Positions 22,291 through 62,754 of a DNA stretch of 64,000 nucleotides are shown here, in pieces. Every line of letters begins with the position of its first letter. Within the stretch, counting starts at the first letter, position 1. A program made the position numbers and the translations under genes. The DNA comes from Escherichia phage phiEco32. The notes under the pieces are model-generated. The model was not told the DNA's origin, ran no database searches, and saw only the letters and a list, made by a program, of their open reading frames with translations. Location of the stretch: sequence record NC_010324.1; one strand, written 5' to 3'.

Positions 22291-23343
22291 ATGTCTTTAT
22301 TTGGAAAATCAGCTTCTAGCAAAACCACAGTGGCTCCTTCCTCTCAGGTTGATGCCCTGCTGAAGCAGATTGTTGCTAATGCTCAGAATATGCAGAACAA
22401 CGATCCGGGATTCATCTCCCAACAGCTGGCTGGGTTTAATGGCAACCAACAGGGTGCTCTGAATAACTTAGCAGCTTCTACGACTCAGAAGAAGTTAGCT
22501 GATATGTACACACCTCGTACACAGCAAGGGTTGGACCAACTAAACTCTCTTGCCCAGCAGTATCAGAATATTGTCAATGGTGGCGGTCTAACTGCTGATG
22601 GTGTTAATAACTTCAGTAAAGGATTGAATAACTCAGCTCTTGCTCAAGCGACTAGTAAGGCAGCTTCCAATGTATCTCTCGGAAATGGTTCTGATTCAGG
22701 TTCTCTCCGTAGAGCTGCTGCTCAAGGTGCTGCTCTGAACAGTGCTAATACAAACTTAGCTCGTACTATCAGTGGCAAGAATATGGGAATCAGTGCTCTT
22801 CAACAAGACCAAAACTTCCAGAGGGGCTTACTTGGTGCTCAGTCAGGATTGGCTGGACAGAATCTCAATCTTGGTGCTCAAGGTGTTCAGGCAACTCAAC
22901 AAGCTATCCAGAATCAACTCATGGCTGGTAACCTACAACAGCAACAAGCCCAAGCTCAAGCTGATATTAATTGGCAGAACGCTATTGGCTCTCAACAGTA
23001 TGGGTGGAATCAGCTTAACAACCAACTTAATGTATTAAATAGTGTAAGCCCAATGGCTGGGTACACGATTAAGAATGCTGCTCCGGGGGTTAATACTGGA
23101 CAACAGCTCCTAGGTGCTGGTATCACTGGATTAGGTATTGCAGGTCGTATGGGTGCTTTCTCTCCTAATCAACAGACTCAGAATGCTTGGAGTTCCTATA
23201 ACAACTCAGGTGGGCAATCTGGAATGGCTGGTCCTATGATTGGTGGTTCTAATCTTTCTCAACAGAAAGGTCAGTCTAACTGGTTATCCACAGCAGGTAG
23301 TAATATCTTAGGTGGTGTCTTAGGGGCATTTGGAGCAAACTAA
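22291..23343 (+). CDS. Q/N/G-rich low-complexity virion protein
   Basis: ORF track; SD AAGGAGG; Gly-rich hydrophobic C-terminus. Confidence 0.5.
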   Translation: MSLFGKSASSKTTVAPSSQVDALLKQIVANAQNMQNNDPGFISQQLAGFNGNQQGALNNLAASTTQKKLADMYTPRTQQGLDQLNSLAQQYQNIVNGGGLTADGVNNFSKGLNNSALAQATSKAASNVSLGNGSDSGSLRRAAAQGAALNSANTNLARTISGKNMGISALQQDQNFQRGLLGAQSGLAGQNLNLGAQGVQATQQAIQNQLMAGNLQQQQAQAQADINWQNAIGSQQYGWNQLNNQLNVLNSVSPMAGYTIKNAAPGVNTGQQLLGAGITGLGIAGRMGAFSPNQQTQNAWSSYNNSGGQSGMAGPMIGGSNLSQQKGQSNWLSTAGSNILGGVLGAFGAN

Positions 23344-24337: not shown

Positions 24338-25993
24338 ATGCAACAGACAACTTACGCTCAGGTCAGAAGTCGTGACCCGAGAAATACTTTCTATGGTGTT
24401 AATCCGGGAGCGGCTTCGGCCTCTCCTTATATGGCTAGACCAACTCAGACAGCAGATATTTCTATGTACCAACGTCCTGCCGTACCTTCATCTCTTGCGG
24501 GTCTTGTCTCTCAGGCAGAAGAAGATCAGAATGCTATGGTTAATCCGGGATTTCAGCAGCGTCTTATGGAACAACAGAATCAAGGAACTCCTACCAGTCT
24601 TCAGGGTATTGATATTGGAGCACCGGCTCCTGTAGCGGCTAACCCCAATCTCTCCACTGATCAGGGTTTACAGGATGCTGGGCTTATGCCTAGTGACCCT
24701 CTTCCGGTAACACCTCCTCCTAAACCACTAGAAGCTGGTCCTATGGAGTTTACTCCTTCTCAGGTGGAACAGGCACAAGGTGTGATTAACACTCTTGCTC
24801 AAGGACAAGACACCGGTGATGGGATGACTGCTGCTACTCGTGCTAAAGATCAGGAACGTGTTAACAATGATATCTTGCAAGTTGCGAAAGCTAAAGATCC
24901 TTCAGAAGCTTGGAACAAACTACAGAAAGAACCATTCTATCAGAACTCTAGTTTCTACACAGGGTTGATGGGTGTAGGTCTTTCCATTATGTCAGGTAAG
25001 TCTCCTATCGAAGCTTTCCAGATTGGTCAGGGAATGGCTAATCAAGATGAGACTAAGAAGCAACTGGAAGCTAACCGTGATGCTCTGATTGAACAAGGTT
25101 TCTCTCAAGACTCAATCGCAGCTGCTATTGCTAACGGAGACCCATCTCTTCTGAAGATGAAAGCTGTAGACCCTGCTCAGAAAGAAGCTCTGTATGCTGC
25201 TCGTGAAGAACGTCAGAATGCTGAATGGGATAGACGTCAACAGATTCAAGAGCAGGCTATGCGTGAACGTGCCGAGGAAACTCGTCGTGCTGCTGAAAAA
25301 AGAACTGATATGAACTTTGAACGTCAGAAAGAGTTGATTGGCTATCGTGATAAAGTTAAGGCTGAACGTGCTGAACAGGTTGCTCAAAGTTTCAACTTCC
25401 CCACGAAAGAAATTCGTAACGCTCAGAATACAGCTGAAGGTACTATCGCTAAGCAGTGGGCAGAGAAAGGTGGCCTGTTTAATCAGTCTAATAAAGACTT
25501 GGACTTGGCTGATAAAGCTGTTAAGGACAAAGACTATCAGACGGCCCGTTCTGCTTACATGCAGGCTATCATGAACTCCGCAAGGGCTGAAATTGGTTCT
25601 ACTCGTTCTCTCACTGAAGAAGATTTGGGGCATTTTGCAGAAGACCCATCAATCTTTATCCGTGTAGGTAACAAGTTTGCTCTGAAGTCTGGATGGCGTC
25701 CTACTGATGCTGCTCTTGCTTATGCTCGTAAACAGGCTAACGTCGGTCACACCTCTGCTATGAAAGGTGTTGCTGATGCTAAGAGAGATACTATCAACGC
25801 TTATATTGGTTCTGGTATGGATAAGAAGAGAGCTACTGCATTGGTTAACCGTGCAATCCCTTCTGGTGGTTTCTATGACCCTCTTGGTGCTTTCTCTGAA
25901 GAAGCAGAGGAGGCAGTTGGTGGTGCAGCAACTAATCCTAAACTGAACGGTGCTTTATCGGCTGTCGAAGACACTAGCTGGTTCACGCAATAA
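24338..25993 (+). CDS. internal virion protein, hypothetical
   Basis: ORF track; SD AGGAGA. Confidence 0.5.
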   Translation: MQQTTYAQVRSRDPRNTFYGVNPGAASASPYMARPTQTADISMYQRPAVPSSLAGLVSQAEEDQNAMVNPGFQQRLMEQQNQGTPTSLQGIDIGAPAPVAANPNLSTDQGLQDAGLMPSDPLPVTPPPKPLEAGPMEFTPSQVEQAQGVINTLAQGQDTGDGMTAATRAKDQERVNNDILQVAKAKDPSEAWNKLQKEPFYQNSSFYTGLMGVGLSIMSGKSPIEAFQIGQGMANQDETKKQLEANRDALIEQGFSQDSIAAAIANGDPSLLKMKAVDPAQKEALYAAREERQNAEWDRRQQIQEQAMRERAEETRRAAEKRTDMNFERQKELIGYRDKVKAERAEQVAQSFNFPTKEIRNAQNTAEGTIAKQWAEKGGLFNQSNKDLDLADKAVKDKDYQTARSAYMQAIMNSARAEIGSTRSLTEEDLGHFAEDPSIFIRVGNKFALKSGWRPTDAALAYARKQANVGHTSAMKGVADAKRDTINAYIGSGMDKKRATALVNRAIPSGGFYDPLGAFSEEAEEAVGGAATNPKLNGALSAVEDTSWFTQ

Positions 25994-60110: not shown

Positions 60111-61310
60111 TTATTTTCCTAAAAATAATCCGCTCATAATACCATCCCACTCAGAGGACGGAATCACTGAATACTCCGAACTTTGGTCCAGAGTTCCGCT
60201 ACTGAATCGCTGAACAATATTATAAATATTGAACATATCTTTAGTCTCAGCGCGATAAGCGTAGACTAATCTGTCAGCTGTTCTTTCATCTTTAGATACC
60301 CGACGAGCAAAGGTAACCAGAAGGTTGTCACCTTTGAGTATTTCTGACTCATCTTTTACTAGATCAGGGTGCATAACCGGCAAGAACATTGAGTTGTTCA
60401 CTCGTAACTCTGCTGTTTCATCATTCTCATAATGAATCCACTTAAAGTCTTCATCACGGAAATGACCACACCCATCTCTATATGACTGTTGACGCCAAGG
60501 AACTTGAAATGCTTCAGCGTATTTATCAGCCATGCCGACTGTAAATAGTGACGCTGGGAAAATACAAGCATCCCAATCATTACCAACCAGAGTTGCTTTC
60601 GTTTCCCCTAAGAGGTTAGTGTAAGTGCTAACCATTCGTGAGTAAACATAAGCCTGAAGGATTGTCCAGCCCTCAACCAACCATTTATGAAGGAAGGTTT
60701 CAACTTGACTCTCCTCATCTTCACAATAGAAGGTTCGGTCTAACATTAAATAGAACAGACAACGATCAGCAGGAATGTTCTCAGTTGCTACCCCCATAAA
60801 ACCTTTATCGTGCCAGCGTAAACAGGAGGGACGACCTTTGTCCACAAATGCTTCCATAGCTTCCAGTACAGCACGAGGTGTGGTTCGATGTTCAGGGTTT
60901 TTGTCGTTCCAACGTTCAATGTTATTCTTGGGAGGTGTGTCTTCATCTTCATACGAACACCAACTTAAAGCTTCAGCTACATGCTTTTCATCACGCCAAC
61001 GTCTAAAACCTAACATCTTCATATGAGTTCCAGAGTTCCAGATATGCTTGATTTTACACATATCCATCTCTCGGCTTAACCGGAACTCTTCTCCATCAGC
61101 ACTACGAACGTTAGCTTCTTCATGCCACACTCGAACGTGCATATTCCACCCATGAGTTGCCTCATAAGTGTTAGGTTCAAAATATTCATCATACTCTTCA
61201 TCGTCTTCATCAACGCCGCCATTATAGTTGCGAAGTTGAAGGAATCCATAACAAGGAGGACTAACCGTTAAAACATTACCTTCAGTATCTTCTAATGTTA
61301 CTGGAAACAT
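60111..61310 (-). CDS. hypothetical protein in amidoligase cluster (399 aa)
   Basis: ORF track. Confidence 0.5.
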   Translation of the reverse strand: MFPVTLEDTEGNVLTVSPPCYGFLQLRNYNGGVDEDDEEYDEYFEPNTYEATHGWNMHVRVWHEEANVRSADGEEFRLSREMDMCKIKHIWNSGTHMKMLGFRRWRDEKHVAEALSWCSYEDEDTPPKNNIERWNDKNPEHRTTPRAVLEAMEAFVDKGRPSCLRWHDKGFMGVATENIPADRCLFYLMLDRTFYCEDEESQVETFLHKWLVEGWTILQAYVYSRMVSTYTNLLGETKATLVGNDWDACIFPASLFTVGMADKYAEAFQVPWRQQSYRDGCGHFRDEDFKWIHYENDETAELRVNNSMFLPVMHPDLVKDESEILKGDNLLVTFARRVSKDERTADRLVYAYRAETKDMFNIYNIVQRFSSGTLDQSSEYSVIPSSEWDGIMSGLFLGK

Positions 61311-61686: not shown

Positions 61687-61839
61687 TTACTCCTGTTGTT
61701 TACACTCGTCAATAACCCACTGATAAGTGGATTGCCCAGAAAAGAAACACTGAATAAATCCAGATGTTCTCTGCGTTACCAGTGCTAGTGCACAAATCAC
61801 TACCGCTGCTGCTAGCAGTTTTAAATCTAATTTAGACAT
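61687..61839 (-). CDS. small protein with hydrophobic N-terminus (50 aa)
   Basis: Not in the ORF track; MSKLDLKLLAAAVVICALALV...; SD AGAGGAA. Confidence 0.35.
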   Translation of the reverse strand: MSKLDLKLLAAAVVICALALVTQRTSGFIQCFFSGQSTYQWVIDECKQQE

Positions 61840-61858
61840 ATTTCCTCTCGTTGGATTT

Positions 61859-61883
61859 AAAAAAGGACTCTCCGAAAAGAGTC
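61859..61883 (-). terminator. rho-independent terminator (minus strand): gacucu-6nt loop-agaguc followed by UUUUUU
   Basis: Perfect 6-bp stem; A-run on the plus strand gives a U-run on the minus transcript. Confidence 0.45.
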
Positions 61884-61917
61884 AAGCTTTAAATACAAAA
61901 AGATATTACCCAATATC

Positions 61918-61926
61918 TGTGGATAA
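61918..61926. promoter_or_regulatory. DnaA-box-like 9-mer TGTGGATAA next to inverted repeat GATATT..AATATC
   Basis: Exact reverse complement of the TTATCCACA consensus in a 235-bp intergenic region. Confidence 0.3.
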
Positions 61927-62074
61927 CCTGCTCTTAAAATATCTATCCGACGGATGTTCGAGGAGTGTTCCTCTCCCTAGCATCGGCCCCATACGGGAAA
62001 TATATTAAGATTAGGTTAGTTGAGTCAGAATAACTCACATAGCCCTCCGAAGAAGGCTATAGGCGTTACTACAA

Positions 62075-62290
62075 CTAAAAATCACTTGATTTTACAAAAT
62101 CATCACTAAGGATTTCGTCAATTTCTTTGTTAGTCAAATCTTTCCTGAACCAACAACAAGGTACATCCACCCATTGACCAGAGTTATTTTCTACAGAGCA
62201 TCTATTGCCTGTCTTACTCTTGCACTTATAGGTCTTACCTTTGTCTAGACGATAGTGTATTCTATAAACGATCGACACAAGTGTTATCAT
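62075..62290 (-). CDS. small Cys-rich protein (71 aa)
   Basis: ORF track. Confidence 0.45.
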   Translation of the reverse strand: MITLVSIVYRIHYRLDKGKTYKCKSKTGNRCSVENNSGQWVDVPCCWFRKDLTNKEIDEILSDDFVKSSDF

Positions 62291-62754
62291 TACTCTACCC
62301 TAACTGAAGGACAGTATTTCTCTTTCTTGCTACGATACATCACAACAATCCAGTTTGAATCACGACGCTCTTTCTTACGTCGTTTCTTTTCAGCACGAGT
62401 TTCATATGTGCTAGTTCGGTGGTCACGGTATATTCCACGAAGTTCATAAAATGCCCAACCACCACCAAACACTACACCAGCCAAAGCAGCCAAAGATAAG
62501 GCACCAAGAGCAGGGGCAGTGAACCATGTCCACCAATTGAATGACAAAAAATTCTCATGTCCAAGGAAAGAGCCACCAATCATGGACAGTGCAGCGTATA
62601 CAACCCCTAACAGCAGCGTCAGTGCAATGAAGTGCATCACTGTACGCCAGAAGTATTCGCAAAAGTTAGTCATATTATCCCAATGAGAGTTGGGTAAACC
62701 TGACATGGTTTTGTTGAACTTATGCAACCATCCGTTCTTGTTAATCTTGATCAT
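62290..62754 (-). CDS. membrane protein (2-3 TM) with highly basic C-terminal tail
   Basis: Hydrophobic helices FIALTLLLGVVYAALSMIGG and APALGALSLAALAGVVFGGGWAF, then KKRRKKERR. Confidence 0.5.
   Translation of the reverse strand: MIKINKNGWLHKFNKTMSGLPNSHWDNMTNFCEYFWRTVMHFIALTLLLGVVYAALSMIGGSFLGHENFLSFNWWTWFTAPALGALSLAALAGVVFGGGWAFYELRGIYRDHRTSTYETRAEKKRRKKERRDSNWIVVMYRSKKEKYCPSVRVE

Follow-up and report, generated by a model that had tools for sequence, protein, structure and literature searches.

A conserved folded RNA with a predicted terminator and a candidate double DnaA box in the early operon of phiEco32-like phages

Folded RNA elements within early operons transcribed by the host RNA polymerase are known as the put sites of phage HK022 and the nut sites of phage lambda. 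They occur as two paralogous copies with a shared core, and a nut site may lie between a gene and a terminator, as in cro-nutR-tR1. The put RNA attaches to the zinc-binding domain of the beta' subunit of RNA polymerase and suppresses termination with no need of protein factors. In Salmonella phage 7-11, the early transcripts originate at two right-end promoters and cover almost half the genome; the authors of that study anticipate a strategy of antitermination that 'remains to be defined' (PMC8948821). On the host side, DnaA favours in vivo pairs of boxes that are 2-3 bp apart, just 13 of the 32 perfect single boxes of E. coli are occupied by the protein, the double DnaA box tTTAAGAACAggTTATCCACAg at nrdD is a peak in chromatin immunoprecipitation sequencing (ChIP-seq) of DnaA, and roadblock termination by DnaA has been cited (Stringer, Fitzgerald & Wade 2024, PMC11317965). 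The injection-stop region of the virulent coliphage T5, located at the border of the genome portion that is expressed first, is non-coding and repeat-rich and holds a cluster of eight conserved DnaA boxes, the role of which is itself only a hypothesis (Davison preprint, doi 10.1101/866236). Here we describe a spacer of 235 nt (61840-62074) in a 64,000-nt stretch of Escherichia phage phiEco32 (NC_010324.1), hereafter called the window; its source group is Kuravirus, the phiEco32-like podoviruses of E. coli. The spacer lies between homologues of phi32_91 and phi32_90 and is read here on the minus strand, the mRNA sense. All genes around it are on that strand and form part of the early cluster; the host sigma70 RNA polymerase transcribes this cluster leftward, starting from promoters at the genome's right end. 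Sequence comparison identifies the spacer as a deeply conserved folded RNA element ending in a predicted terminator, and it is a candidate for controlling early phage transcription. Neither the RNA family nor its occurrence together with a host-type double DnaA box appears to have been described in the literature and databases searched; a terminator, a structured leader and a DnaA box in a phage are each of an already known kind.

With the spacer alone as query, 102 phage records were matched, including the Salmonella phages 7-11, SE131, SeKF_80 and pSal-SNUABM-01 with 69-74 % identity and the same gene neighbourhood; 7-11 and SE131 are classified as Moazamivirus. A local blastn search of the last 19 kb of the window (45-64 kb, which hold the early genes and some of the middle ones) against 45 kb of 7-11 aligned no other non-coding DNA, the remaining alignments being pieces of conserved enzymes. 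A neighbouring membrane protein shares 34-53 % identity between the Kuravirus and 7-11 groups. The position of the spacer between genes is strictly syntenic among the relatives, and the genes directly flanking it on either side differ between the clades: downstream is a 50-amino-acid protein in one and an endolysin in another. A pattern scan of metagenomes and 100,044 genomes recovered the same phage lineages and otherwise GC-rich chance matches, and a search for more distant family members in two scans of viral contigs and one each of metagenomes and genomes yielded the same phage clades together with GC-rich or unrelated chance matches. The annotation in the SU7 and 7-11 records marks a 'terminator' alone in the spacer, the published promoter and terminator lists of SU10 have no entry there, and the literature searched on these phages mentions neither the spacer nor DnaA.

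On the minus strand, about 155 nt fold into a conserved RNA domain that comprises, from 5' to 3', the hairpins H1 and H2, the interrupted helix P1, which closes a three-way junction, the hairpin Pa within this junction, and the long arm P2-loop-P3 with a 7x7 internal loop; a weak AT-rich hairpin and the terminator follow. H1 (UAUAGCCUUC-UUCG-GAGGGCUAUG, ATAGCC..GGCTAT, 62038-62061; -13.9 kcal/mol, z -3.9) has a lower stem that is invariant in both paralogues of the element, and an upper stem and loop that vary in length and sequence. H2 (UGAGUUA-UUC-UGACUCA, 62021-62037) is kept in relatives by compensatory U-A to C-G or G-C exchanges, with insertions and deletions in its loop. Upstream of H1, at the stop codon of the preceding gene, a conserved AGUAAC box (62063-62070) always includes a stop triplet, UAA or UGA. 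This box can pair with the 5' arm of H2 (62036-62029), which would lengthen H1 and is mutually exclusive with H2; three of the seven pairs vary on one side yet stay paired, and the outermost alone ever breaks. The 5' strand of P1 (61999-62018) was recognised from inverted repeat I3 and the fold and consists of three segments (62018-62013, 62010-62005 and 62003-61999); the 3' strand, recognised from the fold, lies at 61924-61943. Pa (CCC-GUAU-GGG, 61988-61997) has a C-G pair swapped for G-C in other clades. The P2-P3 arm (61947-61986) is built from P2 (CCGAUG/CGUCGG), the internal loop (CUAGGGA/GAACAUC) and P3 (GAGGA-NNNN-UCCUC).

The 7x7 internal loop is invariant save the pair next to P3, which is A..G in 22, C..A in 12 and A..A in 1 of 35 sequences. 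The exchange between A..G and C..A, found in 34 of these 35, fits a non-Watson-Crick pair of the sheared type; to our knowledge, none of the K-turn, loop E and sarcin-ricin motifs fits the loop. The tetraloop of P3 varies freely, even among near-identical phages, and much of what distinguishes Kuravirus copies that are otherwise near-identical lies in this part of the minus strand (61960-61973). Ten forms were seen: ACAA, ACAC, ACAG, ACAU, AUAA, AUAC, AUAU, GUAA, GUAU and GUGU.

The fold is supported by compensatory changes. Folded independently, the window and 7-11 sequences adopt the same architecture (z -3.5 and -3.9). Among 28 distinct sequences, 92 % of the cells were paired, compared with 39-46 % when the partners were slid by 1-3 columns; the covariation score was 0.246 as against at most 0.078, none of 500 shuffles reached 0.246, and 13 pairs had changed on both sides. 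RNAalifold, unaided, recovered H1, Pa, P2 and P3 with 8 compensatory pairs, and the full-length set added P1 and the terminator; overall, 8-11 pairs carried compensatory changes. Many G-U pairs of the fold would be A-C mismatches on the opposite strand, thus the fold belongs to the mRNA-sense strand. The existence of a conserved structured RNA is far more secure than the composite model of its function proposed below. Rfam 15 (4227 families) returned nothing at the gathering score, the best hit at E<=10 being a chance match with 12.8 bits against a cut-off of 219, and neither tRNA nor tmRNA was found in the spacer. By inspection, no conserved pseudoknot candidate was seen for the single-stranded tail UCCACAG that follows P1.

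The earlier note on this DNA, made from the sequence of the window, had reported two hairpins in the region and a GATATT..AATATC palindrome adjacent to a DnaA-box-like 9-mer. Both hairpins are present: 62038-62061 is H1 and 61866-61883 the stem of the predicted terminator. The palindrome (GATATT 61902-61907, AATATC 61912-61917) does adjoin the box and, with its 4-nt loop, forms a hairpin of -3.7 kcal/mol. Read as RNA it is the AT-rich hairpin GAUAUU-GGGU-AAUAUC followed by U5 (61897-61917), which is weak and missing in the 7-11 clade. The inverted repeats are not of the DnaA or origin type; they form the stems of terminators and of a folded RNA specific to one strand. Three other candidate features were rejected. 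A sigma70 promoter match within the spacer (62028-61999, 9/12) is weak, lies within H2 and P1 and is not conserved across clades. The published lists put no phage gp36 promoter (tAATGTAtA) there. A small open reading frame (ATG at 61992, 28 codons) was discarded because the length of P3 differs by 2 nt between the clades and the changes preserve pairing.

The spacer ends in a predicted intrinsic terminator (61859-61893) made up of an A-tract (UUUAAAG), the stem-loop GACUCUU-UUCG-GAGAGUC (61883-61866), a C and six U (61864-61859). The GACTCT..AGAGTC hairpin was scored as an intrinsic terminator in the terminator scan, with a folding energy of -9.7 kcal/mol including the extension of A-tract and U-tract. 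The stem and the T-run are kept in 24 of 24 sequences of this copy of the element (copy A), pSal-SNUABM-01 having a shorter run (CTCTTTT), and the stem has undergone exchanges of A-U for G-U and of U-G for C-G or G-C with pairing preserved. By sequence, such a stem-loop with a U-tract looks like an intrinsic terminator. No other hairpin in the 45 kb of 7-11's leftward region that were examined is followed by C and U6, the remaining minus-strand candidates having interrupted T-runs. It directly precedes the ribosome-binding site GAGAGGAAA of the next gene, the phi32_90 homologue for a 50-amino-acid protein with one hydrophobic stretch (61687-61849, ribosome-binding site included; ATG at 61839). 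Ordinary intrinsic terminators and attenuator leaders share the arrangement of a stem-loop and U-tract directly before a ribosome-binding site and after structured untranslated RNA; the structure upstream of the phage terminator differs in being far larger and more conserved than a terminator needs, and in lacking an Rfam family and, as far as found, an alternative antiterminator pairing.

The compact, stable body with a terminator hairpin and U-tract at its 3' end, conserved single-stranded segments and two paralogues would also suit a stable, trans-acting small RNA, a 3'-terminal piece of about 215 nt released by termination and 5' processing, whose target would belong to the host or the phage and could be reached by way of, for instance, the invariant tail UCCACAG, or that sequesters a protein on its internal loop. 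We consider this very unlikely: no target was identified, there is no conserved promoter, as the sigma70-like match mentioned above is not kept and the upstream sequence is coding and variable between relatives, and the strict synteny between genes is what is expected for a cis element. A riboswitch-type attenuator is highly improbable. Here the ligand of the three-way junction would be a small molecule connected with the amidoligase and amidotransferase module downstream, and the junction would switch the terminator. The aptamer-like multi-stem junction with invariant unpaired bases directly upstream of a terminator speaks for it, as does the conserved downstream module with a COOH-NH2 ligase, a GlmS-like amidotransferase and an ATP-grasp enzyme; the absence of a match among the 4227 Rfam families, the failure to find a conserved antiterminator by inspection, the inconsistency of the immediately downstream gene between clades and a second copy without an adjacent terminator speak against it.

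This second copy (copy B) is located about 5-6.6 kb upstream of copy A in ECBP2, NJ01 and ES17 and was found in 97 records by nhmmer and a hairpin pattern search; in the window it would fall beyond the end. It shares H1, H2, Pa, P2, the internal loop and P3 with copy A. A covariance model built from both copies scored the window copy with 169.5 bits and B copies with 95-105 bits, and detected no other copy in the window, the rest of the ES17 early region, 45 kb of 7-11, Aeromonas phage APT65 or HK022; the 7-11 clade has copy A only. Copy B ends with AAUUUUCGAA in place of the DnaA box of copy A and has no adjacent terminator. Since it retains the RNA core without either, the function of the core would be separable from both. 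Copies A and B each precede a terminator, not adjacent in the case of B, and both are far from the promoters with other terminators upstream of them. The spacer of copy B is 358 nt long in ES17 (locus L041, 21460-21817, minus strand; in NJ01 L009 11190-11500, minus strand) and contains hairpins with UAGGGG(UA) loops and, over about 215 nt, four copies of the motif (C)UAGGG; a 59-nt insertion is present there in some phages. Downstream of it follow an open reading frame for 46 amino acids and then a terminator.

The 9-mer noticed earlier as an exact complement of a DnaA box, at 61918-61926, is indeed one: TGTGGATAA on the plus strand reads TTATCCACA on the minus strand (61926-61918). That note had proposed counting boxes against expectation and had cautioned that a single box can occur by chance. 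DnaA boxes are not enriched in the window: two perfect boxes were counted where 0.66 are expected, a number of at least two being reached in 15 of 100 shuffles, and the relaxed consensus TTWTNCACA has 7 matches against 7.03 expected. The count is no greater than chance would give; going beyond the caution, this copy is nevertheless invariant in homologues and forms the strong half of a candidate double box. The spacer box is unchanged in 24 of 24 distinct homologous sequences from three genera of E. coli phages and the Salmonella-phage genus Moazamivirus. The other perfect box of the window, at 23284-23292 on the plus strand within the gene for a 350-amino-acid ejection protein, has the same GG..G flanks (GGTTATCCACAG) and served as control; it is probably a chance occurrence since it is not conserved in the Suseptimavirus and Nieuwekanaalvirus relatives, where it is mutated. 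By sequence, the spacer 9-mer is a genuine perfect DnaA box under purifying selection.

A second, weak box (TTAAGAGCA, 61937-61929) precedes the strong one, separated by GG (61928-61927), so that the spacing of a double box is given; the whole, tTTAAGAGCAggTTATCCACAg, covers 61918-61937 on the minus strand. The spacer box is the strong half of this candidate double DnaA box, which is nearly identical to the DnaA-occupied nrdD site. When the 218-nt element was compared with all complete E. coli genomes, a single chromosomal place was matched, upstream of nrdD. The match extends over 42 nt with 36 identities (86 %), the phage stretch being ATATTTT-AAGAGCAGGTTATCCACAGATATTGGGTAATA and the host stretch ATATTTTTAAGAACAGGTTATCCACAGAAATTGGGAAAGA, and 20 of 21 positions across the double box agree, the double boxes themselves differing in one base. 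Its E-value was 5e-3 for 28 Gb of redundant E. coli genomes, or about 1e-6 scaled to one genome. One Moazamivirus-like contig has a 19-nt exact match to the host site. Both sites consist of a weak 9-mer, a 2-bp GG spacer, the perfect TTATCCACA and a following G, and both would lie inside a transcribed untranslated region. They differ in several respects: the host site is accompanied by a second perfect box at a distance of 78 bp and is located in a 5' leader with the box orientation opposite to transcription, whereas the candidate phage site stands alone between cistrons, shares bases with an RNA helix and has terminators after it. The decay of the box at 23284 while the spacer box is invariant, together with the nrdD match, argues that the DnaA reading is more than a coincidence. 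Upstream of nrdD (E. coli locus L075) the two perfect boxes are at 2514-2522 and 2592-2600; both are downstream of a TATAAT element, which would place them in the transcribed leader. A parallel of DnaA box plus terminator at nrdD was dropped, as the terminator scan calls no terminator there.

The box bases can also be accounted for in RNA terms. The first three bases of the strong box close helix P1, and the following UCCACA is an unpaired, invariant RNA tail. A structured RNA with a terminator, in a cis-regulatory, processing or stabilising role, would then suffice: the box bases would be kept as part of P1 and as a functional single-stranded tail, the box would have no DnaA role, and the likeness to nrdD would be a relic of sequence exchange or a coincidence. 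To this explanation we assign a fairly small, though appreciable, chance. The strong covariation of the fold agrees with it, as do the pairing of GGUUA of the box with an invariant UAACC, the equal invariance of the other unpaired blocks CUAGGGA, GAACAUC and GUAU, the copy B that does without a box, and the lack of box enrichment in the window. Pairing leaves unexplained why the unpaired tail is an exact consensus box with favoured flanks, and the 36/42-nt match to a DnaA-occupied host site, including the non-consensus positions of the weak box and both flanks, is not explained either.

A replication origin, or a DnaA-dependent loading site for helicase or primosome, is quite unlikely. In that case DnaA at the double box would open the adjacent AT-rich stretch, perhaps aided by transcription or an R-loop from the structured RNA, like RNA II of ColE1 with its nearby DnaA box. 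The candidate double box would be of high affinity, the 34 nt after the box have 76 % A+T, the region is transcribed, and the gene for the primase/helicase lies about 10 kb downstream. The pBR322 origin region also carries GGTTATCCACAGA. Contrary to an origin, there is one site and no cluster of boxes in the window, repeated 13-mers were not found, and the orientation of the T-rich strand is, as we read it, opposite to the arrangement of R1 and the DNA unwinding element (DUE) in oriC. The cumulative GC skew turns only at about 30 kb, where the gene orientation flips, and not at the spacer; the phage encodes its own primase-helicase, and the intrinsic terminator would release the transcript.

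The best explanation, to which we give slightly less than even confidence and which is partly inferred, is a composite one: a boundary or checkpoint for transcription within the long early operon that runs leftward, formed by the structured RNA, a candidate host DnaA site and a predicted terminator. The boundary is suggested by the conserved terminator-like stem-loop, by the long early transcripts of 7-11 with their expected antitermination, and by the ES17 early operon, which also crosses several terminator-like hairpins. Host RNA polymerase coming from the right-end early promoters would meet the checkpoint at the spacer. There the terminator may end or attenuate transcription of the variable host-takeover genes, just before the conserved block of amidoligase, amidotransferase and replication genes. 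The invariant loop of the RNA domain could dock a factor (RNA polymerase, one of the Nus factors or a protein of the phage) on which the degree of read-through depends; alternatively, the RNA domain might serve to stabilise the transcript's 3' end. At the DNA level, host DnaA sitting on the double box would act as a roadblock or as a regulator of polymerase passage. Measured from the right end, the side on which early transcription begins, the element is located at 19-21 % of the genome length, and similarly so in both phage groups (WFI101126, NC_070991, 61343-61578 of 77307; SU10, NC_027395, 62637-62862 of 77327; 7-11, NC_015938, 70647-70892 of 89916). The terminator TE for the host polymerase in phage T7, at about 19 %, has a resembling location.

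Several observations weigh against a checkpoint of this composition. In ES17, terminator-like hairpins upstream of the element (locus positions 25143 and 23730) come without such an RNA element. A conserved antiterminator pairing between the RNA domain and the terminator was not found by inspection; the 3' strand of P1 and the 5' arm of the terminator share a complementarity of 4-6 bp that, again by inspection, is not conserved across clades. The element is more than 10 kb away from the promoters, unlike put or nut sites. Copy B has neither the box nor an adjacent terminator, and the box count of the window is at expectation. Helix P1 takes in nearly the whole weak box and the strong box's first 3 nt, so RNA constraints could explain part of their conservation, and the weak box is poorly kept in the 7-11 clade.

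The comparison with described systems bears on the same point. Like put and nut, the element is a folded RNA in an early operon transcribed by the host polymerase, with two paralogous copies, of which the 7-11 clade has one, and a position, as at cro-nutR-tR1, between a gene and a terminator; it would meet the stated need of these phages for antitermination. It differs from put, which has about 70 nt and two stems near the promoters, by its length of about 155 nt, its three-way junction and its distance from the promoters. The covariance model finds nothing in HK022, and the element is not a put member in structure or sequence. By inspection, neither a boxA (CGCUCUUA-like) nor a boxB hairpin is present in 61840-62074, so the element is not of the lambda nut type. 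With the T5 region it has in common conserved DnaA boxes in repeat-rich non-coding DNA of a virulent coliphage at the boundary of the first-expressed genome part; one double box here is opposed to a cluster of eight in T5. A more far-reaching interpretation, which we consider unlikely, sees in the element the read-through control so far missing for phiEco32-like and 7-11-like phages, working by means of the host replication initiator. Copies A and B would then be a new family of nascent RNAs that modify the host RNA polymerase in the manner of put and nut, and DnaA on the captured host-type double box of copy A would gate passage, possibly including genome entry driven by RNA polymerase or the start of phage replication. 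A gate at about 20 % from the leading genome end would couple delayed-early expression to the DnaA state of the host.

For the antitermination question raised in 7-11 (PMC8948821), the one non-coding sequence that this phage and the phiEco32 group have in common within the region compared offers a precise, mutable target, situated on the clearest terminator of the early operon. The structured RNA, lacking an Rfam counterpart, adds an RNA family. If DnaA binds, a virulent phage would be keeping a near-copy of a chromosomal DnaA regulatory site, and early phage development would be tied to the initiator of host replication. Kuraviruses see wide use as therapeutic candidates; at the boundary that the element marks, insertion of payloads or deletions could have polar effects.

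Upstream of the spacer lies the phi32_91 homologue (62075-62290, minus strand, 71 amino acids), with its stop codon TAG at 62077-62075; the gene occupying this position varies from relative to relative. At 62290-62754 and in its neighbourhood, a gene for a 154-amino-acid membrane protein and the 71-amino-acid gene are each present or absent among close relatives while the spacer is fixed, and SR02 has an additional gene of 267 nt just upstream of the spacer. The ES17 early operon contains several more spacers of 200-350 nt with terminators, and 1.8 kb without annotated genes (locus L041, 26066-27851) surround its strong early promoters, an unusual length for a compact genome. Downstream of the element, the minus strand of the window at 52000-61310 carries a conserved module, common to 7-11, with the COOH-NH2 ligase (PF14395), the GlmS-like amidotransferase and, according to the annotation of relatives, an ATP-grasp enzyme and a gamma-glutamyl cyclotransferase. 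Within it, a seeming gene-free gap of 418 nt (56185-56602) is mostly coding: the open reading frame of the amidotransferase, listed as 54493-56184, extends upstream to an ATT codon at 56523-56521, which is preceded by the Shine-Dalgarno sequence AGGTGGA and followed by a Cys codon. Because of this Shine-Dalgarno sequence and the Cys-containing match of ICGIV to MCGIV in 7-11, translation of the GlmS-like amidotransferase probably begins at a rare AUU codon, and the annotation of the gene in relatives such as ES17 is probably too short.

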